Below, in pieces: positions 8,877 through 63,818 of a stretch of DNA of 64,000 nt. The notes under the pieces are model-generated. The model did not search any database and was not told where the DNA came from. It saw nothing but the letters and a program-made list of their open reading frames with translations. How positions within the stretch are numbered: the first letter of the stretch is position 1; each line of letters begins with the position of its first letter. A program made the position numbers and the translations under genes. Origin of the DNA: an uncultured delta proteobacterium (lineage in GTDB: Bacteria > Desulfobacterota > RBG-13-43-22); NCBI GenBank assembly GCA_963802945.1, contig CAWDKY010000014.1, positions 32,001 through 96,000 of the forward strand, in the 5' to 3' direction.

Positions 8877-8955
8877 GCAGTCAGCCGTCAGCCTTCGGCT
8901 ATCAGTAAATGCTTTTAATGACAGTGGGTTGGCTAAATGCTGATTGCTGGAAGCT
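8877..8955. repeat. Heptamer-periodic inverted-repeat element
   Basis: TCAGCCG TCAGCCT TCGGCTA TCAG ... GCTAAAT GCTGATT GCTGGAA GCT. Confidence 0.7.
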
Positions 8956-8976
8956 CTATACCAATTAGATAGTTGA

Positions 8977-10137
8977 ATGAATCGAATGGAAAAAACCGCG
9001 GACATCGTCATCATCGGCGGCGGGATCATCGGGACGAGCATCGCCTTTCATCTGGCCCGGAAAAAGACCAAAGGGGTCGTGCTCCTGGAAAAGGGTATGC
9101 TGGGTGAAGGGTCCACGGCCAAATGCGCCGGGGGTATACGGTCCCAATTCTCTACGGAGATCAACATCCGCTTCTCTCTGGAGAGTTTGAACTTCTGGAA
9201 CCATTTTCAAGAAATCATGGGGACTGAGCTTTATTTTAAAAAAGTCGGCTACCTTTTCTTGGCTGCCAGCGAAGACGAGTGGGCCATATTTAAAAACAAT
9301 TCGGACCTCCAGCACCAATTCGGAATCCCCGTGGAACTTCTATCCCCCCAAGAAATTCAATACCGCTGGCCCTATCTGCGGGTGGATGATCTTAAGGGGG
9401 GAACTTTTTGTACCTGGGACGGATACGCCGGGCCTTACGAAGCCCTGAGCGGCTTCACCCGGGGGGCGAGGGCCGGCGGGGTAAAAATCTTTGAGCAGAC
9501 CGAAGTCCTCCAGATTCTGCGAAACAAGAACCAGGTGACCGGCGTTCGGACTTCTCGGGGTGATATTGCTTCGCCCATCGTAGTCAATGCGGCCGGCCCC
9601 TTCGCCGGTGAGGTGGGCAAACGGGCCGGGGCCGACGTGCCGGTTCAACCTTTTCGCCGGCAGCTATTCTTCACCGGGCCATTCCCCCACATTCCCGATC
9701 CCATTCCTCTGGTCATCGACTTTCACCAGGGCTGGTATTTCCGAAGAGAGGGAGCGGGTTTGTTGATTTCCGGGCCCAAGGACGCATTCCCTTCCTTTAA
9801 TCTGAACGTGGATTATGAGGCCATGGTGGAGGTGGCCGGAAACTCCATGCACCGGGTGCCTATCATGGAGAAGGCGGCCATTGACCGCGGCTGGGCCGGG
9901 TCTTACGAGATCTCTCCCGATAACCAGGCCATATTGGGAGAATTTCCCGGATTGAGAGGCTTCTTCCTGGCCAATGGCTTCAGCGGCCACGGCTTCCAGC
10001 ACAGCCCGGCAGTGGGAAAATGCATGGCCGAGCTGATCCTTGGGGAAAAACCTTTCCTCGACATCTCCTGTCTCTCCCTTGAGCGCTTCGCCAAAGGAGA
10101 ATTGATCCGAGAGCCCCTCACCGCCTTCAAAGACTAA
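8977..10137 (+). CDS. FAD-dependent oxidoreductase (D-amino acid oxidase / sarcosine oxidase beta family)
   Basis: IIGGGIIG, GSTAKCAGG, VVNAAG, GFSGHGFQHSPAVG. Confidence 0.9.
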   Translation: MNRMEKTADIVIIGGGIIGTSIAFHLARKKTKGVVLLEKGMLGEGSTAKCAGGIRSQFSTEINIRFSLESLNFWNHFQEIMGTELYFKKVGYLFLAASEDEWAIFKNNSDLQHQFGIPVELLSPQEIQYRWPYLRVDDLKGGTFCTWDGYAGPYEALSGFTRGARAGGVKIFEQTEVLQILRNKNQVTGVRTSRGDIASPIVVNAAGPFAGEVGKRAGADVPVQPFRRQLFFTGPFPHIPDPIPLVIDFHQGWYFRREGAGLLISGPKDAFPSFNLNVDYEAMVEVAGNSMHRVPIMEKAAIDRGWAGSYEISPDNQAILGEFPGLRGFFLANGFSGHGFQHSPAVGKCMAELILGEKPFLDISCLSLERFAKGELIREPLTAFKD

Positions 10138-10550
10138 GCGGGTCCTGGATTAAACCGTATGGAGGGTGGCGGGGAATTTAGGGTCCTATTGACTTCATGT
10201 TCCCTTTTGAGCTTTGAGCTAAATTTTTGCCCCGCAAGGCAAAAATTAGTTGACTTTCCCCCTTTTTCCTTTTATTTTCTTACTATTATCTTTGGGCTTT
10301 CAGTCTTGAGGTTAAAGTTTTTTTTCGCCGAACGACCCTGTCCCTCGCAGGCGCCGCACGACGAACGTTTTTTAAACCCTCTCATCCTTAAGTTGTGAAG
10401 TTCATATTTCTTGGCCTGTTGAATGAGGTTCTTCGGCCAAGGGCCGGTTGAATGGATAGCTGAACAGATAATCCTTATTTATAAATATAAAAAAATAGCC
10501 CGATGTAATGATGTTACGAACTTCTTCAAAAGAAAGGAGGTTATTCCATT

Positions 10551-11204
10551 ATGTTCTGCTCAAATTGCGGCACAAGGATTGAAGAGGAGGTGAAATTTTG
10601 CCCTAATTGTGGCAATGGAATCGGCAGCAGCGGACTTCAAACAACTAAATCCTCTTATGGTGTGGTTGACGCTGATAGCCCGTTTAGAATTCAAGGGGAA
10701 AAAAGGGAAAAATTCTCTTCAAGCCCGGCTGCCATCAGCGATATGGATAAATTGAATCTTTTTCTTTTGGTAGGGGGTCTCTGTTATTTTATCGGGTTTT
10801 TTCTGTCCTGGGTAGAGGTTATGTCGGCTCCCCTTTCAGGTTTGGATATAATCAAAACATCTTCTGGACTATATCAGGTTTTGTCTTTGGTTCTTTTATT
10901 TTTCCCTATTGGCGGAGGATTTATTATCTATTATTTTTTTACAAAGAATCCCCGCCTAAGAAGACTATCGTATCTTAGCTGGATCATTCCTATATTATGT
11001 ATCATTATAATTATAATATTAATTATAATAGCCACGGCCTTTCCGGAGGATTTCGATATAAAATCAGCATTTGAAATGATGATGGGGCAAAAGTTTAGCG
11101 ATTTTTTCAGTATCTTTGAGTTTATTGGCCTTGGTATATACGTGATCATTGCAGGAATGATTTGCCTCATGATAGGAACTGGTAAAAAGAGGCCTTCTTT
11201 CTGA
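10551..11204 (+). CDS. Zinc-ribbon domain membrane protein
   Basis: N-terminal CSNCG...FCPNCG and four hydrophobic segments; RBS GGAGG. Confidence 0.8.
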   Translation: MFCSNCGTRIEEEVKFCPNCGNGIGSSGLQTTKSSYGVVDADSPFRIQGEKREKFSSSPAAISDMDKLNLFLLVGGLCYFIGFFLSWVEVMSAPLSGLDIIKTSSGLYQVLSLVLLFFPIGGGFIIYYFFTKNPRLRRLSYLSWIIPILCIIIIIILIIIATAFPEDFDIKSAFEMMMGQKFSDFFSIFEFIGLGIYVIIAGMICLMIGTGKKRPSF

Positions 11205-11722
11205 AACGGGTCATGGTTTGAAGTCAAATACTTTTAAGCAGAATGACCGGCCTAGGCAAAAATCACTAACGATAGCTAATAAAGGATGATTTCCCAATAG
11301 GGTCTGACAAAACATTACCTTGGAATAATGAATCCGTTGTGAAAAGGGGTCTAGTCTGCTCTTGACTATTTGTGGAAAATTGGACCCCATTTTCTTTTTC
11401 CCATAATTGATAAACGCTCAACCCCGACTTTTTTCTTTTAAGCCTATTTTTAACCTGGGACTTTGTCCTTTTTCCTTTATCTCTCCTGCCTCAGTTCTCC
11501 CATGGTTCGGCCTTTCCGCCCTTTGGTTTGGTCGCTGAACGACGAAGGATGAACACCAAACGTCTTTTACTTTTCCCTTGACTTACCCCCTTCCCCCCTT
11601 TATTTATTTATAATATCTTTAGCTTTTTTTATTTTCGTCGAAGGCCGAACGTTTTTTACAGCCTTTCCCACTTATTTGTGAGGTTAATATTTCTTTTTTA
11701 TTTTCTAACAGGAGGACAGGCT

Positions 11723-12241
11723 ATGAAAGAAACACCCGATTATGAAAAGTATCCGGTCAGTGAAGAGGAAATGGGTAAACGGTATAAGAACTGGACAGAG
11801 ACTTTGGCCCGGCAGATGGTTGTCTTATTTCGAGTCGGAAAAGAGGTCGGCGGGGAGAAATTTATTGAGCGTCTGAAAGAAGAGTATTACAAAGACGGCC
11901 AGAAAGGCGCCAAGATGTGGATGCGCATGACGGGAACCACCCCGGAAGATTTTCACGACTGTATGGCCCTGCCCAAGGTGCACGACTTGATCGACGATAC
12001 TTATGCCAATTATTGGGACGGGTATGTCCAGCATACGCCAAAAGCCTTTGAGAAAGAACTCAAAACCTGCCCGGTGGCGAAGACTTGGTCCAGGGAACCG
12101 GATATATGCGGCATCCTGTTGGGGTCATCGATGAAGGGCATGGCAGAGTCGCTGAATCCGAAGTTCAAGGCCAGCGGCTTTACGAAATTGCTGCCCAAAG
12201 GGGACAATTGCTGCCGGTTCTGCATTTCATTGGAAGATTAG
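11723..12241 (+). CDS. L-2-amino-thiazoline-4-carboxylate hydrolase-like / V4R-like protein
   Basis: CPVAKTW...C...LNP...L.KGDNCCRF pattern; RBS GGAGG before ATG 11723. Confidence 0.65.
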   Translation: MKETPDYEKYPVSEEEMGKRYKNWTETLARQMVVLFRVGKEVGGEKFIERLKEEYYKDGQKGAKMWMRMTGTTPEDFHDCMALPKVHDLIDDTYANYWDGYVQHTPKAFEKELKTCPVAKTWSREPDICGILLGSSMKGMAESLNPKFKASGFTKLLPKGDNCCRFCISLED

Positions 12242-12293
12242 TGAAGTGGCAGGAAGCCACGTTTTACATCATGAAACTTAGGAGGGAATAGAA

Positions 12294-13274: not shown

Positions 13275-13436
13275 AGGACCCATTACCCGTTTTAAAGCAT
13301 TGGGTTAACAATTGTTGTGGATTTCTAAGTGAGGAATTTATGGTAACACCTTAGTAAATATGCTACGTCTTCCTTTTGAATTTTACTGTTCAATGAAATA
13401 GGGATAAATAGTCAGATCAAAGAAGAGGCACATCCT

Positions 13437-16101: not shown

Positions 16102-17462
16102 ATGAAAAAAGAAGAAAAGCAAATCCCGAAAAAGAAAATCCTCATCATCGATGATGAAGAATCCATACGCGACGGATGCACGCAGGTCTTGTCCCGGAAA
16201 GGCTTCCAGGTTGAAAGTACCGGCGATGCCCTTTTGGGGCAGGAGATGGCCCTCAAGAATATTTATGATGTCATCCTGCTGGACATCCGGATGCCCAAAA
16301 TGGATGGTTTGGAAATTCTCAAGAAGCTCAAAGTCGAAAAAAACATCTCGGCCAAAGTCATCATCATTACCGGTTATGGCAGCATACCGATGGCGGTCGA
16401 GGCGATGAGACAAGGCGCCTTCAATTTTCTCAGCAAGCCTTACTCGGCAGCGGCATCTGAGAGGGGCGGTTGAAGAGGCTTTGAGGCAGTTTGATGGGGG
16501 CGGAGTAGAAAAAGGACTTTCCGTATTAATCGGCAGCAGCGACTACATGAAAGAGCTCAAAGAATCCATTGGTAGAATTGCCCATACCGACAGCACCGTT
16601 CTCATTACCGGAGAGAGCGGGACAGGCAAGGAACTGGTCGCTCGCACCATCCACAACCTCAGCAAAAGGGGTGATCAGCCGTTTATTCCCGTTGACTGTT
16701 CTTCGCTGGTGGAGACCCTCATGGAAAGCGAACTTTTCGGACATGTCAAGGGGGCCTACAGCGGGGCCACCGAATCACGGGAGGGCCGCTTTCAGATGGC
16801 TGACAAGGGCACCTTGTTTTTAGATGAGATTTCCAACATCAACCTCAACATACAGGCCAAACTGCTTAGGGTGATCCAGGAGCAGGAAGTGCCCAAAGTT
16901 GGCCGATCGTCGCCCGAGAAGATCGATGTCAGGCTGATCACCGCCACCAATAAAGACATCAGATCGAAATTGATTCCGGCAGGTTCAGGGAGGATCTATT
17001 TTACAGGATTTCCGTTGTGCCGCTCCATATAAAGCCATTGTGTGAACATAAAGCCGATATTCTGCCTATTGCCCAGCATTACCTGGAGATATTCATTGCC
17101 AAGTACGAAAGCAGGTAAGAGGCTTCTCAGAAGAAGCCAAAAAATCCCTGGTCGCTTATCGCTGGCCGGGCAATGTCCGGGAGTTGAAGAATACCATAGA
17201 ACGCCTCTGTGTACTCTGCGACCATGAGGTCGTCGACCTTTCCGATATATTCTATTACGGTCAAAACGATCATAGCAAGGCCTCTGTTTTGGATTCTATG
17301 ACCGGCAGGATGACCCTGATCGATGTGGAAAAAGAACATATCGTCAAAGCCCTGCGCCACTTTCACTACCAGATCAACAAGACGGCTCAATTCCTGGGCA
17401 TTGACAGGAAGACCCTTCGGATAAAGATGCGTAATTACGGCATCAATATTGAGGAACCGTAA
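16102..17462 (+). CDS. NtrC-family sigma54-dependent response regulator (several frameshifts)
   Basis: Receiver (IIDDE, LLDIRMP), AAA+ (GESGTGKE, ESELFGH, LFLDEI, WPGNVREL) and Fis-HTH (TAQFLGIDRKTL) spread over consecutive ORFs. Confidence 0.85.
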
Positions 17463-20250: not shown

Positions 20251-20679
20251 ATGGCTTCGGTAAATAAGGTTATTTTGATCGGAAACCTCGGGGCTGATCC
20301 GGAACTGCGTTATACGGCCACAGGAACGGCAGTAGCCAATTTTAACCTGGCCACCCGGGATAACTGGACCAGTAAAGACGGGAACAAGGAAGAACGTACC
20401 GAATGGCATCGGATCGTAGCCTGGGGACGTTTAGGGGAAATCTGCGGTGAGTATCTGGTCAAAGGCAAGCAGGTTTATATCGAAGGCAAGCTGCGCACCC
20501 GAAGCTGGGAAGACCGGGACGGGAATAAACGCTATACCACCGAAGTCCTGGCCCAGACCATGCAGATGTTGGGACCGGCCGGGGAACGGGTTTCTTCTGA
20601 AAGGGAAGTAGGAAACAAAGATTTCGGCAGCGAACCGCAGGGTGGAGGGCCCTTTCCCGAAGAGGACATTCCTTTTTAA
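20251..20679 (+). CDS. ssb: Single-stranded DNA-binding protein
   Basis: [25 protein letters not shown]-terminal EEDIPF. Confidence 0.97.
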
Positions 20680-20792: not shown

Positions 20793-20893
20793 AAAATACG
20801 AATAATGAATTTCGAACACCGAATTTCGAATCATGAACGGATTGGTTTCTTTCTGTCTTCGATTCAATATTCGTAATTCGATATTCGACGTTT
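20793..20893. repeat. Heptamer-periodic inverted-repeat element
   Basis: (NNCGAAT)n arm and (ATTCGNN)n arm between convergent ssb and hemA. Confidence 0.75.
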
Positions 20894-23797: not shown

Positions 23798-23940
23798 AAG
23801 AATCCAGAATCCAGAAGTCAGAATTCAGAATAAAAACACTTGAACTTTTTTTAACCCTTGAATCCTTTGTTTAAAGTCCAGGGTTTTTACTTCCGAGCCG
23901 TTCACTTGAATCCTTGACCCCTTGACCCCTCGAATCCTTT
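23798..23940. repeat. Heptamer and octamer periodic repeat cluster
   Basis: AGAATCC AGAATCC AGAAGTC AGAATTC AGAAT; CTTGAATC CTTGACCC CTTGACCC CTCGAATC. Confidence 0.75.
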
Positions 23941-24097: not shown

Positions 24098-25637
24098 ATG
24101 GCTACAGAATTACTGATCAATGCCCGTTCCTATGAAACCCGTGTGGCGGTGATCGAAAATAATATCCTGGCCGAGCTCCATGTCGAGCGGCCCAGCCGAT
24201 ACAGTCTGGCCGGTAATATCTATAAGGGTCGGGTGGTCCGGGTATTGCCTGGGATGCAGGCCGCCTTTGTCGATATCGGACTGGAACGGGCGGCCTTTCT
24301 TTATATTACCGATGTAACCGACAATTTTGAAGAGTTCGAGGCCATGATGAAGGAAGAGGAGGAAGACCCGGAGGAAGAGTCTGGGCGAACTGGAAGTCGA
24401 ACTCGAAGAAAAAGTGACATCCCGTCAACCTTATTTTAATATTGAGGACCTGCTTAATGAAGGGCAGGAACTACTGGTCCAGGTTGTCCGGGAACCACTC
24501 GGTTCAAAGGGTGCCCGGATCACCACTCACATCTCTTTACCCGGTCGTCATTTAGTCCTCATGCCCACCATGGATCATATTGGTGTTTCCCGCCGTATTG
24601 AAGATGAAACGGAGCGGAAAAAACTTAGAGAATTTTTAAGTGAGATCAAACCGGATGGATTTGGATTGATTGCCAGGACGGCCAGCGAAGGGGCACTCAA
24701 GGACAAGATCAAGACTGAAATGGATTTTTTGATCAAGCTTTGGAACAATATCCAACAAAAAATGCCCCGGGCTTCTATTTCCAGCCTTATTTACCAGGAT
24801 TTGAATATTACCCTCCGGGCGGTCAGGGATCTTTTTACCAAGGAAGTTGATCGCCTGGTGATCGATTCCCGGCCGGAATATGAGCAGATTCTTCAATTTA
24901 TCGATACTTTTATGCCTAAATTGAAACATCTGGTCCACTTATACGAAGGGAAAGAGCCCCTTTTTGACGGCTATGGAATCGAGGTGGAAGTGGGACGGGC
25001 CTTGGGCAAAAAGGTCTGGTTGAAATCAGGCGGCTATATCGTTATTGAAGCTACCGAGGCCTTGACCTCGATCGATGTCAATACCGGTCGTTATGTGGGC
25101 AAGAGGAATCTGGAAGAAACCATTCTTAAGACCAACTTGGAGGCCGTCAAAGAGATTGCCTACCAGTTGCGGCTGCGCAATATCGGCGGATTGGTGGTTA
25201 TTGATTTTATTGATATGGAAAAAAAGAGCGACCGGGAAAAGGTTTTTAATGCCCTGAAAGAAGCCCTGAAACGAGACAAGAACAAGACCAATGTTCTTAA
25301 GATGTCCGAACTGGGGTTGATTGAAATGACCCGGAAACGGACCCGTGAAAATTTGACTCGGCTGTTCCGGGAACCTTGTTTTTATTGCGAGGGTGAAGGT
25401 TGGCTGAAATCCAAAAATTCCATTTGCTATCAGATCTTCCGGCAGATTGAGCGAGAGGCCTGGGAAATGCCTGGAGATAGCCTGACCTTGCAGGTCCATC
25501 CGGAAATTGCCGGTCTGCTTCTGGATGAAGAGCATCCGGCCATGGAAGAAGTGGAACAAAGGATCGGCAAGAGGATCTCCGTGGAGTCCAAAGAAGCCAT
25601 GCATCTGGAACAATTTAAAATTTATAATGATAAATAG
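24098..25637 (+). CDS. rng: Ribonuclease G/E family (frameshift near 24380-24415)
   Basis: GNIYKGRV..VLPGMQAAFVDIG, KGARIT, IDVNTG, RLRNIGG..VIDFIDM, CFYCEG. Confidence 0.9.
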
Positions 25638-28716: not shown

Positions 28717-28852
28717 AAATCCGAAATCCGAATTTCGAAATCCGAAACAAATTAAATGAGCAAATTCCCGAATTCAAAACGTTTTTGTTTTGGTCTTTTA
28801 GATTTGGGACCTTCGGGCTTATTTCAGATTTTGTGCTTCGAATTTCGGATTT
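28717..28852. repeat. Heptamer-periodic inverted-repeat element
   Basis: AAATCCG AAATCCG AATTTCG AAATCCG AAA ... TTCAGATTT..GCTTCGAATTTCGGATTT. Confidence 0.8.
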
Positions 28853-31274: not shown

Positions 31275-32108
31275 ATGGATAAAAAAATAACAGAAGGTAT
31301 GAAAGCCTTTTTTGAACAACTGGGTCTGCCGGAAGAACCTTTTGGGGTTTTTTATACCGATCAACAGCCGGAAAAAGGGTATTCTCCAAAATCGGGAAAT
31401 TTACCGACTGCAGAGATGGAGAAAAAAGGAGAAGTCAACTGGGGTTCAGTTTTTGAGAATTTTTCATGTGTTATTGGAAATATCTGGCGGGCCCGGCGTA
31501 TGGGGAGCCTGGCCTATTTTGACCGGGAACGGTTCGGCTGCCTGGGCGGGTCTTTTTATCTGGGTTTTTTAAAACCTCAATTGGATTTCATCGCTTATTA
31601 TATTTCAACCGGGATCCCTAACCAGATCCAGGGAGAACATTACCTGGAATCGCCTGAAATAACCCGCCACTTCTTTCAGACCGTTGACCCCAGGCCGGCC
31701 CCGGCCCGTTATTGTGTCTTCAAACCCATCAGTCAGTTTGCCATAAATGAACAGCCGGAACTGGTTATCTTTTTTGCACGTGGGGAAATTCTTTGCGGCT
31801 TGAATCAACTGGCCACCTTTGTTACCAACGATTTTGAGGCCGTTAGCTCCCCTTTTGGGGCCGGATGCACCAATCTTGTTACCTGGCCTTTAAAATACCT
31901 GGCAGAAGGGAAACTTAAAGCGGTTTTGGGAAGCTGGGATCCTTCGGATCGAAAATTTTTAAAACCAGACGAGCTAACCTTTACCGTCCCTTTGGCAATG
32001 TTTGAACGGATGGTCTGGCGCTGGACGGAATCCTTTTTGAAAACAACTACCTGGGATATTGTCCGAAAGAAAATCGATCGCAGCCGTCGTATCTGGGGGG
32101 AAGGATAA
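31275..32108 (+). CDS. DUF169 family protein
   Basis: GC.GG..YLGF, PELVIFFA, SPFGAGC, DE LTF pattern. Confidence 0.75.
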   Translation: MDKKITEGMKAFFEQLGLPEEPFGVFYTDQQPEKGYSPKSGNLPTAEMEKKGEVNWGSVFENFSCVIGNIWRARRMGSLAYFDRERFGCLGGSFYLGFLKPQLDFIAYYISTGIPNQIQGEHYLESPEITRHFFQTVDPRPAPARYCVFKPISQFAINEQPELVIFFARGEILCGLNQLATFVTNDFEAVSSPFGAGCTNLVTWPLKYLAEGKLKAVLGSWDPSDRKFLKPDELTFTVPLAMFERMVWRWTESFLKTTTWDIVRKKIDRSRRIWGEG

Positions 32109-34238: not shown

Positions 34239-34354
34239 ATAAATCAGGCCGAAGACTGAAGACCAAAGGCAGAAGGTTTCATAAAACTTATTACATTTTT
34301 CCTTCAGTCTAATGGCTTCAGCCTTTAGCTTGGTTTATAAAGTTAGGATCAATT

Positions 34355-35589: not shown

Positions 35590-35682
35590 GCAGAATCCAG
35601 AATCCAGAAGTCAGGATTCAGTATTAAACCTAAATAGAACTCATCGAATATTCTGACTTCTGGCTCCTGGATTCTGAATTCT
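35590..35682. repeat. Heptamer-periodic inverted-repeat element (nusG-rplK spacer)
   Basis: CAGAATC CAGAATC CAGAAGT CAGGATT CAG ... ATTCTGA CTTCTGG CTCCTGG ATTCTGA ATTCT. Confidence 0.85.
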
Positions 35683-36867: not shown

Positions 36868-36955
36868 TAAATAGCACAAAGCTCAAAGGTCAAAGCTCAA
36901 AAGAAAAGATAAAAATGTACTTTCAACTTTAAGCATTCAGGGATTTTGGTTTTAG

Positions 36956-38030: not shown

Positions 38031-38191
38031 AAAAAAACAAAAAGGATTCCACATTTATAGATATTAAAGGAATCAAAGATTCAATTCCACGGGCATGGTA
38101 TACAGTACAAGGTTAAAGGGAAAAGCTTAAACCGTAAGCCGTGTTCCGCGAAGTTTAAATAAATTTTTCCCACTATAACCAAGGAGCAAGA

Positions 38192-42331: not shown

Positions 42332-42475
42332 TTAATCTAAAAAACAGGATTCAAGGGATCCCGCTAAGTATTCGTTCGGAGTTCGGAGTAATGAGTTTTT
42401 AACCCCGAACTCCGAACTTCGAACTTTCTTTTAAAAACCTATTTGGCTGTTAACCCAAATTTTTAGGAGTACACT

Positions 42476-45400
42476 TTGGAAGATTTAATCAGTTACTTTG
42501 CCAAACCCAAAGACCCGTTGAATTTTTATGCGGTAAAAATTTCTCTGGCCTCTCCGGAAAAGATCCACGAATGGTCGCATGGCGAGGTGAAAAAGCCGGA
42601 GACCATAAACTACCGAACCTTCAAGCCGGAAAGGGACGGGCTTTTTTGTGCCAAGATATTCGGCCCGACCAAGGATTATGAGTGTAATTGCGGAAAATAT
42701 AAACGGATGAAACACCGGGGAGTAGTTTGTGAAAAATGCGGAGTGGAGGTCATACAGTCCAAAGTACGACGTGAACGGATGGGACATATTGAACTGGCCA
42801 GCCCCGTAGCCCATATCTGGTTTCTAAAGAGTTTACCCAGTAAAATAGGTACCCTTTTGGATATGACCCTCAAGGAATTGGAAAAAGTTCTTTATTTTGA
42901 AGCCTATATTGTTTTGGAATCCAAGGAACCTTCTTTGCCGGTTCGAAGTCTGTTCTCAGAAGAACGCTATCACCAGATCAAAGAGGAATTTGGGGACCGG
43001 GTGGTGGCAGGCATTGGGGCCGAAGCCATCCAGGTTCTGCTAAAAAATTTGGATTTGGAAGCCGAATCCAAAGCCCTGCGGGAAGAAATCCAAACAACCC
43101 ATTCTGAAGCAAAAAAGAAAAAAACCATCAAGAGGCTTAAAATTATTGATTCTTTTAGGGATTCAGGAAACAGACCTGAATGGATGGTTATGAAGGTTAT
43201 ACCGGTTTTACCACCGGACCTCAGGCCCTTGGTTCCCCTGGATGGCGGACGTTTTGCCACCTCCGATCTGAACGATCTTTATCGAAGGGTCATCAATCGG
43301 AACAATCGCTTGAAACGGCTCCTGGAGCTTAACGCCCCGGATATCATCATTCGAAATGAAAAACGGATGCTTCAGGAGGCCGTGGATGTCCTCTTTGATA
43401 ACGGCCGACGTGGGAAGGTGATCACCGGGACCAATAAGCGCCCTCTGAAGTCTTTGAGCGATATGCTGAAAGGCAAACAAGGGCGATTTCGGCAAAACCT
43501 GTTAGGGAAACGGGTCGATTATTCCGGCCGTTCGGTGATCGTTATTGGGCCTAATTTGCGGCTGCATCAGTGTGGTCTCCCGAAAAAAATGGCCCTGGAA
43601 CTGTTTAAGCCTTTTATTTATCACCGGCTGGAAGAAAAAGGCTATGTGTCCACTATTAAAACAGCTAAAAAGATGGTGGAAAAGGAGACCCCAGAGGTTT
43701 GGGATACCTTGGATGAAGTGGTGCGCGAATATCCGGTCCTGCTTAACAGAGCTCCGACCCTGCACCGCCTTGGGATTCAGGCCTTTGAACCGATTTTGGT
43801 TGAGGGGAAGGCTATCCAGTTGCACCCTCTGGTATGTACGGCCTTTAATGCCGATTTTGATGGAGACCAGATGGCTGTCCATATTCCCTTGTCCATCGAA
43901 GCCCAAATCGAAGCCCGTGTTCTGATGATGTCCACCAACAACATCCTTTCCCCGGCCAATGGGGAACCGATCATCGTCCCCTCTCAGGATATTATTTTGG
44001 GTTTGTACTATATGACGAGGGACCGGATGTTTGCTAAAGGGGAAGGGAAGATTTTTTATGGGCCGGAAGAGGCACGTATAGCCTATGACGCCGGTCAGGT
44101 GGAACTTCAAGCCAGGATCAAAGTCCGTCTTTCCGGCCGGTTGGTCGATACCACGGTTGGACGGGTACTCTTAGGGGAAGTGTTGCCCCCAATGCTTCCC
44201 TTTGATCGCATCAACCGGGTCATGACCAAAAAAGAGGTTCGAAAACTGATCGATGACTGTTATCGGAAGGCCGGGATTAAGGAGACCGTTCTTTTGGCCG
44301 ACCGGTTAAAAGATATTGGATTCCATTATGCAACTTTATCGGGGATTTCGATTTCCGTTTCGGATATGAAGATTCCTCCTCAAAAAAAGGAAATATTGAA
44401 AAAAGCCGAAGAAGAGGTTCGAAGAGTTGAGAAACAATACATCGACGGATTGATTACCGACGGTGAAAAATACAATAAATTAGTTGATATATGGGCCAAG
44501 GCCAGTGAAGACGTGGCTCTGAAGATGATGCAGGTTATGGGCTCAGAAATGTCCACCAGCAAGGGCCATAAGGATCTCCAGGTTGCCAGTTTTAATCCCA
44601 TCTTTATGATGACCGATTCTGGAGCTAGGGGAAGCAAGGATCAGATGAGACAATTGGCGGGAATGCGCGGCTTAATGGCCAAACCCTCGGGGGAGATCAT
44701 CGAGACGCCGATTCGGGCCAATTTCCGAGAAGGGTTGAGTGTCTTGGAGTACTTTATTTCCACCCACGGGGCCAGAAAAGGGTTGGCCGATACGGCCCTT
44801 AAAACAGCCAATTCAGGATACCTGACCCGACGGCTGGTGGATGTGTCCCAAGACGTGATCATCAATGAAATCGATTGCGGGACTATTGATGGGATTTTTG
44901 TCGAATCCCTGCGGGAAGCCGGAGAAGTGATTCAACCTATCGGGGAGCGCGTTTTAGGCCGAGTCACTTTGGAAGATATCAAAGATCCCTTTACCGATGA
45001 GGTGCTGGTTGCGGTCGGCAACGAAATCGATGAGGCGGCAGTAGAACGGATTGAAGAAGCCGGTATTGAGAAAGTTCTGATTCGGTCCGTGTTGACCTGT
45101 CAAAGCGCCCGAGGGGTTTGTGCCAAGTGTTATGGCCGGGACCTGGCCTATGGAAAACAGGTCGATATTGGGCAGGCTATCGGCATTACTGCTGCCCAGT
45201 CCATCGGAGAACCGGGGACCCAGTTGACCATGCGGACCTTCCATATAGGCGGTGTGGCCAGCAAACGGGGGGAACAAACCACCCTTCAATCCCGAACCGA
45301 AGGCAAGGTCCAGTTTGTCCAACTTCATACCGTTCAAAACCGGGACGGAGATCTGGTGGTGATGAACCGAAACGGGCATATTTGTATCCTGGATGCAAAG

Positions 45401-46574
45401 AAGCGGGAGCGGGAACGGTACCCGCTTATCTATGGGACCTTACTCAAAGTCAAAGACAAACAATCGGTCAAGTCCGAAACACTGCTGGCCAACTGGGACC
45501 CTTTTACCATCCCGATTATTACCGCTGTTTCCGGCCGGGTCAAGTTCGGTGATCTAACCGAAGGAGCGACCCTGGAGGAACGGCGGGATGTGGTAACTGG
45601 AAAATCCAGCAAGGTCATTGTCGAATATCGGGATGCCGAAGTCCGGCCGCGAATTTCCATCAAAGATGAGGGCGGAAAAACAGCCCGGCTTACCAGGGAC
45701 CAATTCCTTTGCCCGTTACCTCTTGCCCATAGGGGCTATCGTCATGGTTTCCGAAGGGGATCAGGTTTTGGCCGGCGATGTGGTGGCCAAGATCCCCAGA
45801 GAGACTACCAAGACCAAGGATATTACCGGTGGTTTGCCCCGGGTGGCGGAACTCTTTGAGGTTCGTAAACCCAAAGAACATGCTGTGATAACCGAAATTG
45901 ATGGGGTGGTTTCTTTCGGAAAACATACCAAAGGAAAACGGAAAGTCATCGTTACCCCGGAGGTTGGCGAGGTCAAAGAATACCTGATTCCTAAAGGGAA
46001 ACATGTCAGCGTGCAGGAAGGGGATGTGATCCTGGCCGGTGAACCCTTGATGGATGGTTCGGCCAATCCACACGATATCCTGAGTGTCAGCGGGATTAAA
46101 GAACTGGCCAAATATCTGGTCAACGAAGTCCAGGAAGTCTATCGTCTTCAAGGAGTTAAGATCAACGACAAGCATATCGAGGTGATCGTCCGACAGATGT
46201 TGCGTAAGGTGAGGATTAAAGACCCCGGTGACACGGACTACCTGGTGGGAGACCAAGTGGAACGGCAGGCGTTTACTCAGAAAAACCAGGAGATTCTGGC
46301 TCGAGGGGGTAACCCGGCCCAGGCCGAACCTCTGCTCCAGGGAATCACCAAAGCCTCTCTGTCTACCGATAGTTTTATCTCGGCCGCCTCGTTTCAAGAA
46401 ACAACTAAGGTTTTAACCGACACCTGTATCGCCGGTGAGAAGGATTTCCTCCGAGGTCTTAAAGAAAACGTGATTATGGGACGATTGATCCCGGCCGGCT
46501 CGGGAATGCCCGTCTATCGTAAGATTCTTCTTCAGCAAATAGAAGAGAATGCGGAAAAAAAGATTGACAATTAA
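42476..46574 (+). CDS. rpoC: RNA polymerase beta' subunit (single frameshift near 45690)
   Basis: [26 protein letters not shown]; C-terminus ([23 protein letters not shown]) in overlapping ORF 45618-46574. Confidence 0.97.
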
Positions 46575-47021: not shown

Positions 47022-47143
47022 TAAATAACAGGGGTCGAGGAGCCAAGGATTCGAGGGTTCAATCCCGCCGAAGGCGGGACTTGAATCCTTGAACCCTTTT
47101 GGAATTTACCTCACAACTTAACTTAATTTACAAAGAGGTCGGA

Positions 47144-50996: not shown

Positions 50997-51090
50997 ACAC
51001 AACAAGAAGTCAGAAGACGGAACGAAAACAAACTAGATGATAATTATTCTGAATTCTGACTCCTGAATACTGTAATTAAGAGGAAGTACT

Positions 51091-52056: not shown

Positions 52057-52150
52057 TGATGCTGGATACTCGATAAAAACCTTTTCAATCCAGCATCCAG
52101 CATCCAATATCCGGATTTGGAAAACGAATTTCAAAGTCAAGGAAGAAAGC

Positions 52151-53910: not shown

Positions 53911-54036
53911 AATTTCGGATTTCAGATTGCGGATTTCGGAATAAAAAGGTTTAAATCAATCTGAAAAAAGAATTACGGATTGAGGAATGAAAAAGTACCT
54001 TATTATTCCGCAATCTAAAATCGGCAATCCGAAATT
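53911..54036. repeat. Heptamer-periodic inverted-repeat element (rplB-rpsS spacer)
   Basis: ATTTCGG ATTTCAG ATTGCGG ATTTCGG AAT ... ATTCCGC AATCTAA AATCGGC AATCCGA AATT. Confidence 0.85.
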
Positions 54037-59225: not shown

Positions 59226-59723
59226 TTGGCAGACTACAATTCAAAGGATAATCAATTAATCAACAAGGTGGTTCATATCAGCCGGGTAGCCAAAGTGGTT
59301 AAAGGGGGCCGGCGTTTCAGCTTCAGCGCCCTGGCTGTAGTCGGAGATGGAAATGGAAAAGTGGGGGCTGGTTTAGGCAAGGCCAATGAAGTCCCTGAAG
59401 CCATCCGTAAGGCCATGGAAAAGGCCAAAAGAGAGATGAAAGAATTCGCCTTAATGGATCAAACCATTCCTCATGAGGTCGTCGGTTGCTTCGGGGCAGG
59501 ACGTGTTTTGCTTAAACCGGCTTCGAAGGGAACAGGAATTATTGCCGGCGGGGCCGTTCGGGCGGTTATGGAGGCCGTAGGGGTGCAGAACATTTTAACC
59601 AAATGCTTAGGATCTAATAATCCTCACAATGTGATCCGGGCTACGCTTGAAGGTTTGAAAAATCTGAACAGCCCTGAAATGATCGCCCAAAAAAGAGGCA
59701 AAACCGTGGCGGAAATCAGGTAA
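59226..59723 (+). CDS. rpsE: 30S ribosomal protein S5
   Basis: [19 protein letters not shown]. Confidence 0.98.
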
Positions 59724-59728
59724 CCCCT

Positions 59729-59911
59729 ATGAAAAAGAAGATGATACAAATTACGTTACGCAAAAGCGGAATCGGCCGGCCGCCTAAGCATCGTCGAACC
59801 CTCGGGAGTTTAGGGTTGACTAAAATGAATAAGACCATAACCCGTCAAGATACACCGGAATTGCGAGGGATGATTCGCCAAATCTCCCATCTGGTGGAAG
59901 TTAAAGAATGA
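59729..59911 (+). CDS. rpmD: 50S ribosomal protein L30
   Basis: ITLRKSGIGR, LGL, RGMI. Confidence 0.95.
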   Translation: MKKKMIQITLRKSGIGRPPKHRRTLGSLGLTKMNKTITRQDTPELRGMIRQISHLVEVKE

Positions 59912-59956
59912 TGAATTTGTTAAAAGTCATCAAAGAGTGAGAATGGAGTTGCAGGG

Positions 59957-60424
59957 ATGGATCCAAAGCCAAAAGGCACGACATATCATTTGGGAAATTT
60001 ATCGCCGGCCCCCGGTTCCAGAACAAAACCTAAACGGATTGGCCGGGGAATAGGCTCCGGGCATGGGAAAACCGCCACCCGGGGAACCAAAGGCCAGAAG
60101 TCGAGGTCCGGAGGAGGGGTTCGACCGGGGTTTGAAGGGGGGCAAATGCCTATCCAAAGAAGGCTCCCTAAGCGGGGTTTTAAACCTATAAGCAGAATTT
60201 CCTTTACCCTGATAAATATCCGAGATCTCCAATCGTTCGCCAGCGGATCTACGGTGGATGTGCCGGCCCTGATCCAGAAGGGGGTCATTCGGCACCTAAA
60301 AGATTCGGTAAAACTTTTAGGACACGGAGAGGTTCAAATCCCTCTGTTTGTTAAGGTCAATAAATGCAGTCAGGGGGCAAGACAGAAGATTGAAGCTGTC
60401 GGAGGAACGGTAGAGGTAATTTAG
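59957..60424 (+). CDS. rplO: 50S ribosomal protein L15
   Basis: GRGIGSGHGKT, GFEGGQMP. Confidence 0.98.
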   Translation: MDPKPKGTTYHLGNLSPAPGSRTKPKRIGRGIGSGHGKTATRGTKGQKSRSGGGVRPGFEGGQMPIQRRLPKRGFKPISRISFTLINIRDLQSFASGSTVDVPALIQKGVIRHLKDSVKLLGHGEVQIPLFVKVNKCSQGARQKIEAVGGTVEVI

Positions 60425-60636
60425 ATTTTAACTTCAGATTACGAAATTTTAACAAACCGATTGTGACATGAAATAACTGAAATAATAAGGTTCCTGGTTA
60501 CGAGTTACGGATCCATGAAGCGAATGACTTTTCTTGAGAACCCCCAACACGCAACTCGTAACAATGGACAAGTGAGATGTAATCTCAAAAAATCAATCGA
60601 TACGGACTTAAAGACCAAGATAAGAGAAAACAAACA

Positions 60637-61947
60637 ATGATCGGCGGCTTCCAAAATATTACCAAGATTCCTGAACTAAAGAAAAAGATCTGGTTTTCCC
60701 TGGCCATGTTGGCCATCTATCGGGTGGGAGTGCATATCCCTGCTCCGGGTATCGATGCCGTGGCTTTGGCGGCCTTCTTCAAAAGGGCCCAGGGAACCCT
60801 GTTCGGCCTTTTTGATATGTTTTCCGGTGGTGCCCTTGAGCATATGTCTGTCTTTGCCCTGGGGATTATGCCTTATATCAGTTCTTCAATTATCCTGGAC
60901 CTCTTAACCGTAGTCATTCCTTACTTGGATAAATTAAAAAAGGAAGGGGAAGCCGGCCGAAAAAAGATTACCCAATATGCCCGCTATGGGACCGTTGTCC
61001 TTTCCCTTTTTCAGGGTTTTGGGATTGCCGTCGGGATGGAGAATATGTCCGGGCCTGGCGGGGCTCCGGTGGTTGTTCAAGCCGGTTGGGCTTTCCGTTT
61101 AATGACTATGATCACCCTCACTTCCGGTACGGCCTTTATCATGTGGCTGGGGGAACAGATCACCGAACGGGGAATAGGCAACGGGATTTCTTTGATTATC
61201 TTTGCCGGTATTGTGGCCCGCCTGCCAAGCGCCCTATCCGCTACCTGGCAATTAGTGCGGACCGGCGAGATAAATTTTGTCTTTATTTTATTAATAGGGG
61301 TGTTGGCTGTCGCCGTGATCGGGTTTATTGTTTTTGTCGAACGGGGGCAGCGCAGGATCCCGGTTCAATATGCCAAGCGGGTAGTGGGCCGAAAGATTTA
61401 TGGGGGGCAAAGCACGCATCTTCCTCTGAAGATCAATACTTCGGGGGTCATACCGCCCATCTTTGCCTCTTCGATTCTTATGTTTCCGGCCACGATAACC
61501 CAGTTCGTCCAGATCCAGTGGCTGAGCCAGTTCTTCAGTAAATATATGCATGGGGGGAGTTTGCTCTATGCTCTGATTTATGTCGGATTTATTTTTTTCT
61601 TTTGTTATTTTTACACCGCGGTGACCTTCAACCCGGTCGACGTGGCCGATAATATGAAAAAATACGGCGGGTATATTCCGGGAATCCGGCCCGGCAAGCG
61701 AACCGCGGATTATATTGACAGGATATTGACCCGCATCACTTTCGGCGGGGCCATTTATGTATCAGCGGTTTGCATTTTACCTCAAATATTGATTTATCGT
61801 TTCAAGTTACCTTTTTATTTTGGAGGAACAGCCCTGCTGATTGTGGTCGGGGTGGCCATTGATACCATGGCTCAGATCGAATCGCATATGCTGACTCGTC
61901 ATTACGAAGGGTTTATGAAAAAAGGGATAGGTAGAATTAGGAGGTAG
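60637..61947 (+). CDS. secY: Preprotein translocase SecY
   Basis: LGIMPYI, WLGEQITERGIGNG, IPGIRPG. Confidence 0.99.
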   Translation: MIGGFQNITKIPELKKKIWFSLAMLAIYRVGVHIPAPGIDAVALAAFFKRAQGTLFGLFDMFSGGALEHMSVFALGIMPYISSSIILDLLTVVIPYLDKLKKEGEAGRKKITQYARYGTVVLSLFQGFGIAVGMENMSGPGGAPVVVQAGWAFRLMTMITLTSGTAFIMWLGEQITERGIGNGISLIIFAGIVARLPSALSATWQLVRTGEINFVFILLIGVLAVAVIGFIVFVERGQRRIPVQYAKRVVGRKIYGGQSTHLPLKINTSGVIPPIFASSILMFPATITQFVQIQWLSQFFSKYMHGGSLLYALIYVGFIFFFCYFYTAVTFNPVDVADNMKKYGGYIPGIRPGKRTADYIDRILTRITFGGAIYVSAVCILPQILIYRFKLPFYFGGTALLIVVGVAIDTMAQIESHMLTRHYEGFMKKGIGRIRR

Positions 61948-61964
61948 TCTTAAACAACCAAAGA

Positions 61965-62053
61965 TGATGGACTCGTAAAAAGTCATCAAATAGTATACGG
62001 CACAGTAAAAAGCTATCCCGCCAAAAGCGGGACAGATGGACTTTTTACGAAGC
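61965..62053. repeat. REP-like inverted repeat in the secY-adk spacer
   Basis: TCGTAAAAAGTC ... GACTTTTTACGA arms; a degenerate half copy GATGAATTTGTTAAAAGTCATC lies near 59910. Confidence 0.7.
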
Positions 62054-62070
62054 TGCCAAGGAGGAGATAA

Positions 62071-62712
62071 ATGAATTTAGTTTTATTGGGACCACCGGGG
62101 GCCGGCAAAGGGACCCAGGCCAAGATGATGATCGATCATTATGGGATCCCTCAAATTTCAACCGGTGATATATTAAGAGCGGCCTTGAAAGAGAGAACTT
62201 CTTTGGGATTAAAGGCCAAAGAATATATGGATAAAGGGCTTTTGGTTCCTGATGAAGTGGTTATTGATATCATCAAGGATCGGCTAAAAGAAGACGATTG
62301 CCAGAATGGATACATACTGGACGGATTTCCCCGCACCGTTGCCCAGGCCCAGGCCTTGGACAGGGTGCTGGCGGCTATGAATTCGGGAATTGATCATGTT
62401 ATTTCCATTGAAGTGGAAAAAGGGGAATTGATCAAACGTCTGACCGGACGGCGGACTTGTCGTCAATGCGGTCGGGGATATCACGTCATTTTTGATCCCC
62501 CGCTGAACAAGGATCTCTGCGACAAATGCCAGGGTGAACTCTATCAACGGGATGATGATAACGAAGATACGGTCCGGAATCGTTTGGAGGTTTATGATTC
62601 GCAGACCTTCCCTCTCATCCAATTTTATAAAGAGAAAGGTCTGGTCCGATCGATTGATGGGCAGGGCGGAATTCAACAGATTTTCGACAGGATTGTTAAA
62701 GCTCTTTCGTAA
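62071..62712 (+). CDS. adk: Adenylate kinase (Zn-lid type)
   Basis: GPPGAGKGT, LDGFPRT, CRQC...CDKC lid. Confidence 0.98.
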   Translation: MNLVLLGPPGAGKGTQAKMMIDHYGIPQISTGDILRAALKERTSLGLKAKEYMDKGLLVPDEVVIDIIKDRLKEDDCQNGYILDGFPRTVAQAQALDRVLAAMNSGIDHVISIEVEKGELIKRLTGRRTCRQCGRGYHVIFDPPLNKDLCDKCQGELYQRDDDNEDTVRNRLEVYDSQTFPLIQFYKEKGLVRSIDGQGGIQQIFDRIVKALS

Positions 62713-62715
62713 GGT

Positions 62716-63489
62716 TTGAAGATGATCTTCCTGAAATCCCCGGAGGAGATCGAAAAAATGAGTGCCTCGGGGAAATTGGTGGCTGAAATTCTTCTGGAGA
62801 TCCGAAATCGGATCAAACCAGGGGTGACTTCTCAGGAATTGGACCAGTTGGCCACCCGACTTTCTCTAAAAAAAAAGGCCCGCCCGGCATTTAAAGGATA
62901 TCACGGATTTCCTTTCAGTTTGTGTGTTTCGGTCAACGAAGAAGTTGTTCATGGCTTTCCGTCCGGGCGGAGACTGGTGGACGGAGACATTGTCAGTTTG
63001 GATTTCGGTGTTTACCTGGATGGTTATTACGGAGACGCAGCCTTGACCCAGGCTGTAGGACAGACAACGCCTCAGGCTGAAAAATTGATTAGAGTCACCA
63101 GAGAAGCGCTGTTTAAGGGCCTGGACCAGGTACGAGCCGGAAGGCGGGTGGGAGATATCTCTTTTGCCGTTCAACAATATGTCGAGAGTCACAAATTTTC
63201 AGTGGTTCGTCAGTTCGTCGGACACGGCATAGGCAAGTCCCTTCACGAAGACCCTCAGGTCCCCAATTTTGGAGAAGAAGGCCGGGGGATTCTCTTAAAA
63301 CCGGGAATGGTTTTGGCCATAGAACCTATGGTCAATGCCGGGAGCAGTGAAGTGGAAATCAAAGCCGACGGCTGGACGGCGGTCACCAAAGACAGAAGTC
63401 TATCAGCCCACTTTGAGCATACGATAGCCATAACGGAGAATGGCTCTCGGATTTTAACTCAGGCCGGTAACGGGGCACCTCTTTTTTAG
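62716..63489 (+). CDS. map: Methionine aminopeptidase type I
   Basis: [26 protein letters not shown]. Confidence 0.98.
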
Positions 63490-63494
63490 AAATT

Positions 63495-63713
63495 ATGCCC
63501 AAAGAAGACGCTATTGAAGTGGAAGGCACGGTAGTTGAAACTCTGCCGAATGCTATGTTCAGAGTAACACTGGATAATGGGCATCGGGTCCTGGCCCATA
63601 TATCAGGGAAAATGCGTATGCATTTTATAAAAATTTTACCGGGAGATCGGGTGACGTTGGAACTGTCGCCTTATGATTTTAACCGGGGTCGAATAACGTA
63701 CAGAGCAAAATAA
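63495..63713 (+). CDS. infA: Translation initiation factor IF-1
   Basis: [23 protein letters not shown]. Confidence 0.98.
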
Positions 63714-63818
63714 AAAATAGGAGTCAAGGAGTTAAGGATTCAAGTAAAAGGATTAGATTAAGAAGTAATTCACTTGAATTCTCGGATCCTTAACTCCTCG
63801 ATCCCTTTGAGGTTTATC

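Follow-up and report, generated by a model that had tools for sequence, protein, structure and literature searches.

The stretch of DNA considered here (the window) is 64,000 nucleotides (nt) long and corresponds to positions 32,001 to 96,000 of contig C14 (C14:32001-96000) in the 72-contig, 4.37-Mb assembly of an uncultured delta proteobacterium, referred to below as G000. From about 33 kilobases (kb) it carries a ribosomal gene cluster in the order tuf, a small L33-like open reading frame (ORF), tRNA-Trp, secE, nusG, rplK, rplA, rplJ, rplL, rpoB, rpoC, rpsL, rpsG, fusA, a second tuf, rpsJ, rplC, rplD, rplW, rplB, rpsS, rplV, rpsC and rplP, continuing to rplO, secY, adk, map and infA. Genes were named from NCBIfam and Pfam, and infA, at the cluster end, was read separately; Rfam at gathering thresholds identified only seven tRNAs in the window. 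Our subject is a set of 15 intergenic sites in this window that are built from tandem words of 7 or 8 nt, in most cases as two inverted arrays (arms) that can pair to form a hairpin. We consider that each of these sites is probably an arm pair or a lone arm of a cassette of the intervening-sequence type, in which inverted word arrays enclose the gene for a small four-helix-bundle protein.

Tandem-word arrays in the window and across the genome

A preliminary description of the window had reported arrays of period 7 or 8 in 15 coordinate ranges, and such arrays are present in every one of them (Table 1). Tandem Repeats Finder returned period 7 at eleven places (20862, 23799, 28717, 35591/35650, 36873, 42374/42401, 51046, 52088 and 53912) and period 8 at 23912, 47080 and 63719, in agreement with the 8-mer units described at 23.9, 47.0 and 63.7 kb. 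When the inverted pairs of the window with arms at most 120 nt apart are ranked by length, ten of the 15 sites fall within the first 25. Each site was also folded as RNA and compared with 200 dinucleotide shuffles, with the outcome expressed as a z score. The description of the sites as hairpins was upheld for 12 of the 15 (z of -2.2 or lower, nine of these being unmatched by any shuffle) and failed for three that do not beat their shuffles: 23798-23940 consists of two unrelated half-elements, and 36876-36940 and 60490-60562 are decayed pairs. None of the 15 sites holds an ORF, and each is situated between genes for proteins or tRNAs. Eleven fall within the cluster that runs from tuf, secE and nusG to secY, adk, map and infA, and nine of these eleven begin 1-8 nt past a stop codon, much as the preliminary description had it.

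The same arrays recur throughout the genome, where they are far more frequent and more symmetric than in shuffled DNA, so that the earlier caveat that they might be no different from shuffled intergenic sequence can be set aside. Counting arrays of at least three copies, the whole genome contains 335 of period 7 and 110 of period 8, compared with 7 and 8, respectively, in a Markov-2 simulation. For intergenic DNA alone (880 kb, 42% G+C) the counts are 269 and 85, compared with 0-2 and 1-3 in three simulations trained on and restricted to intergenic DNA, and periods 5, 6 and 9-12 are near background there. Most arrays (409 of 499) lie outside a greedy ORF set covering 80% of the genome. After merging, an inverted partner no more than 250 nt away (score of 10 or more) was identified for 216 of 485 arrays, compared with 28 direct partners and 9 inverted partners at 1.5 kb in the controls. 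At least a dozen words are present in this genome, most of them not G-rich, and word families are common to tens of arrays each.

Genome-wide, 167 hairpins were delimited, with a median ungapped arm core of 17 nt and a median loop of 41 nt. By setting, 128 are in co-directional spacers, 15 in convergent and 10 in divergent spacers, 9 inside ORFs and 5 at contig ends. Among the co-directional hairpins the median distance from stop codon to arm is 23 nt, and 72 of the 128 lie within 30 nt of the stop.

A four-helix-bundle gene enclosed by inverted arrays

A profile search of this genome with TIGR02436, a four-helix-bundle family, identified six places. Five are enclosed by inverted arrays of period 7 or 8, with the words AGGATTCA, CAGAATC, AGGTTCA, TCGAATA and GATACTG; the sixth, a partial match within a longer frame, lacks such brackets. 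Three proteins of this genome score 128.2, 115.9 and 92.7 bits against TIGR02436 (cut-off 24), and scores of 21.2 and 26.9 bits were obtained with NF033474 (cut-off 80), the model for the Avd protein of diversity-generating retroelements. On these scores the cassette proteins appear to be related to Avd without being members of that family. One cassette protein matches the solved Xanthomonas S23p protein XCC0516 (PDB 2gsc) with an E value of 3.3e-22, and the 2gsc entry contains five chains.

The association of gene and arrays extends well beyond this genome. All 14 genomes of the genus have TIGR02436 matches (4-18 each). In a sample of 33 genus loci (30 loci and three more of this genome, from roughly 120 genus cassettes in existence), 29 have an inverted match of 12 or more between their upstream and downstream sides. 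The corresponding figure is 43 of 1,002 for mismatched pairs, which combine the upstream side of one locus with the downstream side of another that comes from a different genome. We also scanned one genome per bacterial species with a profile made from a seven-sequence alignment and took the best 80 of at least 599 matches, of which 79 had enough flank to assess. Among these best matches, 56 of 79 have an inverted match (compared with 31 of 1,500 mismatched pairs) and 73 of 79 have, on one side or both, an array of period 7 or 8 or of a multiple thereof. The best 80 loci span Thermodesulfobacteriota, Nitrospirota, Bacteroidota, Acidobacteriota, Planctomycetota, Chloroflexota, Verrucomicrobiota, Firmicutes, Proteobacteria and several candidate phyla. 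The statement in the preliminary description that similar repeats flank four-helix-bundle genes resembling those of 23S rRNA intervening sequences is therefore borne out in the genome, in the genus and across phyla.

A second cargo suggested there, a GxxExxY gene, found no such backing: the single TIGR04256 gene has a different repeat, and not such arrays, at its flanks. Among the ORFs between same-word arrays, the four-helix-bundle gene was the only cargo identified. Same-word partners 250-2500 nt apart (five or more shared 7-mers) comprise 42 inverted and 32 direct cases, and the ORFs enclosed at these distances are housekeeping genes between neighbouring hairpins. The 18 ORFs between same-word arrays 0.9-2.4 kb apart comprise 13 housekeeping genes, one member of the phage-integrase family, for which the array match is weak only, and four ORFs without a family.

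On our reading, a complete element consists of two inverted arrays, each of about four to five tandem 7- or 8-nt words and forming an arm of about 30-35 nt, that enclose a gene for a four-helix-bundle protein of 110-130 residues (TIGR02436/PF05635, 'S23p', Avd-related). Its 5' arm is purine-rich, contains Shine-Dalgarno-like words and ends at or near the start codon, and its 3' arm overlaps the end of the reading frame. In the cassettes, no more than some tens of nt separate the 5' arm from the start codon, and in some (C29 and its relative L083) the last word ends with the ATG itself. Words of the 5' arm often contain AGGA, GGAG or AAGG, and the 3' arm begins in the last codons and often includes the stop codon. 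By crude stop-to-stop ORFs, 27 of the 33 sampled cassettes are on the same strand as both flanking ORFs. Because cassettes are co-oriented with their flanks and sit behind stop codons in the direction of the host gene, they have no obvious promoter of their own and would ride on host operon transcripts. In the folded transcript the ribosome-binding site and start codon of the cassette would be paired, and the stem may in this way hide the cassette's own ribosome-binding site.

Matches to cassette arms connect the gene-less sites to this gene family. Counting matches of 13 or more (shuffle maxima were 9-12), 11 of the 15 window sites match the arm of a sampled cassette, and 7 of the 15 do so at 17 or more. 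Across the genome, once the arms of its own five cassettes had been excluded, a score of at least 14 with some arm of the 33 cassettes sampled was reached by 278 of 477 arrays, by 24 of 477 controls in which the letters of each unit had been permuted, and by none of the shuffled arrays.

Arms and gene descend together, in that words are common to non-orthologous cassettes only where the proteins are related. For cassettes at non-orthologous sites, arms cross-match in 6 of 6 pairs whose proteins are 80% or more identical, in 4 of 8 at 60-80% identity and in 4 of 499 at lower identity. The word is specific to the cassette lineage, which would account for one architecture with many sequences. Two pairs of orthologous sites hold unrelated proteins together with unrelated arms, indicating that slots are re-used. 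The cassette gene is under purifying selection, with a dN/dS of 0.05-0.13 in all 11 pairs for which dS was computable (15 pairs were tried). Between related cassettes, 132 of 792 aligned arm positions differ (0.17), compared with 0.48 predicted from synonymous divergence, which makes arms about three times more conserved than synonymous sites, a ratio that is inflated to an unquantified degree because repeats align in any register.

These relationships also bear on the proposal that arrays are born in place by polymerase slippage and mirrored by template switching, with four-helix-bundle cassettes merely preferring to land there. Among long simple repeats, heptamers show the greatest over-representation in many bacteria, and slippage has been offered as the explanation, according to work cited in excerpts of PMC4679880 and PMC4692102. 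Copy number varies between close relatives, lone arrays exist, and higher-order periods of 14 and 21 nt in the arrays show block duplication, all of which slippage would accommodate. It does not, however, predict that words are common only to non-orthologous cassettes with related proteins, that arms are more conserved than synonymous sites, or that a whole 495-nt unit is copied between contexts with its arms included (see below). Array length is likewise not geometric: period-7 arrays form a plateau at 3-4.9 copies (64, 67, 76 and 68 per half-copy bin), followed by 28 arrays at 5.0-5.4 copies and 25 above, and length peaks at 30-34 nt and falls above about 35-38 nt. We regard an origin of the arrays in place as quite improbable.

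Table 1. Word-array sites of the window and three decay stages of cassettes elsewhere in the genome. Window sites are numbered from the first letter of the window; z compares folding energy with dinucleotide shuffles; L numbers denote cassettes.
Position	Strand	Feature	Fold z	Arm pairing	Cassette-arm match
8877-8955		TCAGCNN-type hairpin between oppositely oriented ORFs	-2.78; 0/200 shuffles as good		L060, 13 (shuffle maximum 9)
20793-20893		TTCGAAT-type hairpin between convergent ssb and hemA	-2.72 (minus strand)	20797-20810/20862-20875, 13/14	own-genome cassette C8:12446-12763 (L034), 27
23798-23940		Divergent spacer: lone CAGAATC array 23799-23831, then CTTGAATC/CCTTGACC 8-mer arrays 23886-23940; not one hairpin	+0.38		L083 and L031, 23
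28717-28852	+	AAATCCG hairpin with 104-nt structured loop, 26 nt past a stop codon	-4.30	28717-28732/28837-28852, 15/16	13 (borderline)
34245-34331	+	CTGAAGA/GCCGAAG hairpin, 6 nt past tuf stop, upstream of small L33-like ORF and tRNA-Trp	-5.01		best score 11 (below threshold)
35590-35682	+	CAGAATC hairpin, 2 nt past nusG stop, before rplK	-7.14	22/24	L083, 23
36876-36940	+	Decayed TCAAAGC pair, 8 nt past rplA stop, upstream of conserved rplJ leader	-0.69	12/15	
38088-38150	+	Weak hairpin with AAGGTNN remnants, rplL-rpoB spacer; kept in G005 only, unrelated sequence in other genus members	-2.20; 8/200 shuffles as good		
42372-42425	+	GTTCGGA hairpin, rpoB-rpoC spacer	-5.26	13/13	L080, 13
47029-47097	+	AAGGATTC 8-mer hairpin around small G+C-rich inner hairpin, 7 nt past rpsL stop	-4.54		L062, 18
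51005-51072	+	CAGAAGT/ATTCTGA hairpin, 8 nt past second tuf stop, before rpsJ	-2.64		own-genome L032, 20
52058-52117	+	GATGCTG/CCAGCAT hairpin, 1 nt past rplC stop	-4.59	15/17	own-genome L035, 18
53911-54036	+	Longest hairpin, ATTTCGG/GATTGCG, 1 nt past rplB stop, before rpsS	-6.77	40-nt arms, 33/40	
60490-60562	+	Decayed GTTACGA pair, rplO-secY spacer	-0.94	terminal pairing 10 nt perfect only	8 (no match)
63719-63805	+	AGGAGTCA/AAGGATTC 8-mer hairpin, 6 nt past infA stop	-4.52		L062, 17
C29:230631-231178		Decay stage: arms of relatives' intact cassette kept; gene interrupted by another repeat, last codons kept			
C16:276494-276855		Decay stage: same arms as relatives; gene with internal deletion, both ends kept			
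C17:18565-18768		Decay stage: gene-less hairpin with another word where relatives hold an intact cassette			

The inner loop of the 47029-47097 hairpin is a G+C-rich palindrome (TTCAATCCCGCC GAWG GGCGGGACTTGAA, window 47062-47085) that is also found at C16:18537, C16:77340, C17:78527, C29:186444 and C24:30590, at least five other sites in all. It forms the inner loop of hairpins with 8-mer arms and also occurs with just one word per side.

Copying, decay and turnover of the elements

Cassette copies are found in more than one context. L062, a 495-nt cassette of G009, recurs in G013 as a copy of 98% identity in different surroundings, and related copies are present in G010, G005 and this genome. 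Elsewhere in G009, and also in other genomes of the genus, are copies with the same two ends and different internal deletions (95-98% identity in G009). Members of the L062 subfamily have an imperfect terminal inverted repeat of about 30 nt outside the word arrays. The site in G013 orthologous to that of L062 is no clean empty site, being filled by a different repeat element, and the flanks of L061 are rearranged in relatives. The existence of gene-less and partly deleted cassette copies supports the earlier suggestion of a structure-defined family of non-autonomous mobile units, or of footprints of cargo-gene insertion. We propose that cassettes are copied to new places as whole units and that the gene would often be lost by internal deletion, leaving first a hairpin with an A+T-rich loop, then a single arm and finally nothing. 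New cassettes would land in the same slots or inside old ones, and most copies in this genome would be gene-less shells.

Two other dispersed repeats were seen alongside cassettes. An unrelated repeat of about 130-150 nt, with ends of the GTCAYCCCGG...CCGGAATGAC type, lies within the four-helix-bundle gene of the decayed cassette C29:230631-231178, shares spacers with word-armed hairpins in G011 (rpsL-rpsG) and G004 (rplO-secY), and is also present at G013:C156. Positions 43-207 of the L062 locus in G009 hold a repeat of about 150 nt that is unrelated to the adjoining cassette and has more than 100 matches at 75-97% identity, in all 14 genus genomes.

Inverted ends, many dispersed copies, short non-autonomous derivatives with internal deletions and conserved termini, and insertion of copies into one another are features that these elements have in common with miniature inverted-repeat transposable elements. 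They might accordingly be regarded as ordinary members of that class, moved in trans by a transposase encoded elsewhere, with the four-helix-bundle gene as a passenger; active insertion sequences are indeed present in this genome. One such element, of 1143 bp and presumably of the IS630/Tc1 type, has seven copies that are at least 99.8% identical (C33:97078-98220, two on C27, and one each on C30, C26, C28 and C16), and its inverted ends are bordered by TA; it has two overlapping ORFs with a DDE-like motif on the minus strand, and two of its copies lie within GATACTG arrays, inserted at TA. Two of the four family-less ORFs mentioned above, which are identical, 355 residues long and enclosed by GATACTG arrays, were considered as an autonomous partner and rejected because they are the wrong frame of this insertion sequence. 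The 18 ORFs between same-word arrays include no recognisable transposase, and the full-length partner of the shells instead encodes the four-helix-bundle protein. The ends, moreover, are word arrays specific to each lineage, and the many unrelated words would each require their own matching transposase. Nor would a passenger be expected as one constant cargo in many phyla or under strong purifying selection. We find a transposase acting in trans highly improbable.

The comparison of orthologous spacers called for in the preliminary description showed that a given spacer may hold, in related species, the same element, a different one, a single arm or nothing. Between nusG and rplK (12 genomes), a CAGAAKC hairpin is present in seven, its left arm only in one, another word in one and no element in three (spacers of 41-87 nt, 41 nt in G007). 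Between tuf and the L33-like ORF, all seven genomes have a hairpin, built from CTGAAGR in four, AAGGTYC in two and an 8-mer in one. The rplA-rplJ spacer (12 genomes) holds AGCTCAW in four, the 8-mer AAGGNTTC in four, another word in one, one arm in two and other sequence in one; in G005, the closest relative (97% RpoB identity), the 8-mer hairpin (AAGGNTTC or AAGGATTC units) exactly replaces that of this genome between the rplA stop and the conserved rplJ leader. For rpoB-rpoC (12 genomes) the contents are GTTCGGA (3), AAGGTNN (4), GATTGCG beside AAGGT-type remnants (2) and no hairpin (3, including a 29-nt spacer in G011), and in a further partial contig (L021) a GTGACGA hairpin is nested between AAGGT remnants. 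The rpsL-rpsG spacer (11 genomes) has an 8-mer hairpin in this genome, a lone ATTTCGG array in seven (three with insertions) and GTTCGGAG in three, and all five genomes compared have a hairpin of 55-133 nt between rplB and rpsS. Relatives hold other unit families after the second tuf; after rplC, the hairpin of this genome is also found in G004, and CAGAAKC hairpins are found in G008 and G012. The elements are neither fixed nor free: slots persist and their contents turn over.

In G008, the sequences past the two tuf genes are identical through the first arm of the hairpin, which suggests that gene conversion between the tuf copies reaches into the element; in G000 the two downstream hairpins differ.

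Several results weigh against identifying the sites as cassette relics. Sites 34245, 36876, 38088 and 60490 match no arm of the cassettes sampled, which are 33 of roughly 120 in the genus. Co-occurrence of arrays and gene across relatives is modest (rho of 0.48 in 27 non-independent genomes and 0.31, p of 0.26, in 15 outside the genus), and seven genomes have the gene and no array in the 6-20 kb sampled. The cassettes carry no transposase, none being found between matching arms. A target-site duplication is not demonstrable, since 6 of 8 copies have own-flank matches of 5-7 nt compared with 44 of 110 mismatched pairs and flanks are A+T-rich; this counts against ordinary miniature elements as well. 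Word variation clusters by position phase (global z of 9.4, 0 of 500 simulations; 12 of 158 arrays individually at p of 0.05 or less), and block duplication explains this equally well, so that it is no proof of selection. One-armed ATTTCGG arrays persist between rpsL and rpsG in several species. Lastly, the slots after tuf and after rplB are filled in every genome compared (7/7 and 5/5), and this could mean a host need for the hairpin, not a hot spot.

Such a need is central to an alternative in which the hairpins are host RNA elements kept for their structure (as processing sites, 3' stabilisers or partial terminators) and their cassette likeness is secondary or recruited. It would explain why some slots are always filled despite differing sequence, with three unit families after tuf. 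It is also compatible with the placement of hairpins, which number 128 in 527,587 nt of co-directional spacers, compared with 15 in 132,067 nt of convergent and 10 in 175,681 nt of divergent spacers (2-4 times denser per kb in co-directional DNA). Polarity relative to transcription is strict: in the direction of the gene, the first arm has more G than C in 115 of 128 co-directional hairpins (7 ties) and is purine-rich in 116 of 128, and a Shine-Dalgarno-like tetramer is present in 79 of the first arms and in 2 of the second. This is, however, the polarity of full cassettes, as expected of shells of co-oriented cassettes, and polarity and operon preference are equally expected of promoter-less cassette relics.

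Other observations argue against maintenance as RNA. Stem mismatches on the sense strand are of the G:U type in 48 cases and of the A:C type in 64, and with no G:U excess the pairing is not visibly maintained by selection on RNA. Slots are empty in close relatives, as in the short rpoB-rpoC and nusG-rplK spacers given above, and three of the 15 sites no longer fold. In the rplB-rpsS spacer, the hairpin loop of G004 is inverted, aligning as its reverse complement with the loops of G000 and G008 (scores of 34 vs 11 and 25 vs 15), and arms and flanking genes keep their orientation, which indicates that arms recombine as DNA. The preliminary description had also considered ordinary terminators fixed in relatives, and the hairpins are neither fixed nor terminator-like: between 33,000 and 52,999 no plus-strand terminator-like site lies within a hairpin (31 sites, compared with 25.6, sd 5.9, in shuffles), and the long loops and arms that are not G+C-rich differ from the features of intrinsic terminators. 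Taken together, we judge it rather unlikely that the hairpins are primarily host RNA structures.

Relation to known repeats and possible roles

Two puzzles meet in these elements, namely the excess of 7-nt tandem repeats in bacteria and the nature of 23S rRNA intervening sequences and their S23p gene. Intervening sequences with an S23p ORF are found in the 23S rRNA of Coxiella burnetii, and also of Leptospira and others, at helix 25 or 45. Full cassettes resemble them in having a small gene of the same four-helix-bundle family inside a long terminal stem. Unlike them, the copies described here lie between protein-coding genes and not in helix 25 or 45 of 23S rRNA, are mostly gene-less, and use many word families in one genome. 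In Coxiella, as far as excerpts of PMC4990558 describe it, a 28-bp terminal stem encloses the S23p ORF, and two to three tandem GACAGAT heptamers, in strain-variable number, lie between a Shine-Dalgarno-like sequence and the start codon, much like the tandem heptamers ahead of the start codon in our cassettes. The same excerpts regard the Coxiella element as selfish and horizontally spread and its ORF as decaying, whereas the genes here are under purifying selection.

Excerpts of PMC4990558 also report that RNase III cuts inside the Coxiella intervening-sequence stem in vitro. Given this precedent and an RNase III gene encoded in the present genome, the 12 folding window hairpins, co-transcribed with ribosomal genes, are plausible RNase III substrates. 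Transcribed stems would then be cut as in 23S rRNA intervening sequences, and operon transcripts would be segmented. Eleven spacers of the most highly expressed operons carry stems of 50-130 nt, at which RNase III cutting could uncouple the expression of neighbouring ribosomal genes; the presence of such stems in ribosomal-operon spacers also concerns annotation.

The 23S rRNA gene of this genome (C65:16891-20180) is 3290 nt long, about 365 nt longer than the 2925-position model, with insertions of 13-25 nt in the part of the alignment inspected; it contains no array of period 7 or 8 and no TIGR02436 match. Word-armed hairpins lie beside it, in the 23S-5S spacer (16759-16840) and, on the other side, in the spacer before tRNA genes (20260-20334).

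Intergenic heptamers are familiar from other bacteria. Cyanobacterial heptanucleotide repeats have been named STRR and comprise three words. The arrays here resemble STRR and the TAACTGA repeats of Beggiatoaceae in that tandem 7-nt words are concentrated in intergenic DNA, and differ from STRR in not being one or a few fixed words in plain direct arrays, with at least a dozen words and 216 of 485 arrays mirrored. By the excerpted account in PMC4679880, TAACTGA repeats are nearly all direct and lie just upstream of start codons, with one inverted case in 170 sets; about 45% of the arrays here are mirrored, and they lie just downstream of stop codons. Regulatory roles for intergenic heptamers near gene ends are speculated only (excerpts of PMC4679880 and bioRxiv 10.1101/2022.06.06.494920), as is a protein partner of the Nostoc heptamers (10.1101/2022.06.06.494920).

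The arrays here also resemble the intergenic tandem heptamers GGGAATC of Xanthomonas and GGGGAYT of Nostoc, which typically have about four units (Rehm et al. 2015, PMC4692102, in excerpt). In Xanthomonas, 70-75 convergent array pairs form potential stem-loops, and at a given locus the arrays differ in length and sequence among closely related species (PMC4692102). Those repeats have one dominant G-rich word per genome and were studied as quadruplex formers, unlike the dozen or more words here, which are tied to a gene family; the excerpted text of PMC4692102 draws no cargo-gene link for the heptamers. In the full-text literature, with subscription journals and database family descriptions outside the scope of the search, we found no paper linking heptamer arrays outside rRNA to the four-helix-bundle family. 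If most such arrays are arms or shells of S23p-type elements, the repeats would gain a concrete origin, and the rRNA intervening sequence would be merely the best-known landing site.

What the protein does is a matter for a more tentative proposal, which we think has a small chance of being right. The four-helix-bundle protein could be the cassette's own nucleic-acid-binding factor, an Avd-like pentamer that reads its cognate word array with about one word per subunit and drives copying, insertion or maintenance. One word per subunit of a pentamer would explain why arms stop at about five words. The proposal is compatible with the link between word and protein lineage, the conservation of both protein and arms, the drop in array length above about five units (about 38 nt) and the five chains of 2gsc, a solved homologue that is called a homopentamer in excerpts of PMC4990558. 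These observations are also compatible with plain common descent, or with a limit on length and not on unit number. Were the pentamer model correct, the cassettes would represent a widespread class of mobile element without a transposase, and their shells would account for much of the heptanucleotide-repeat excess in bacteria.

Some minor features of the window were also noted. The rpoC gene is in two overlapping frames within 42476-46574, at 42476-45859 (1127 amino acids) and 45618-46574 (318 amino acids), a division that may be genuine or may stem from a frameshift or an assembly error. A gene of the RNase G/E family (24098-25637) is likewise split, into 24098-24439 and 24414-25637, and a sigma-54 activator is in pieces at 16102-16470 and 16481-17032. 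Finally, an A+T-only palindromic repeat of the TATAAT type (period 6/12), unrelated to the word arrays, lies at 10990-11031 at the end of an unannotated ORF.

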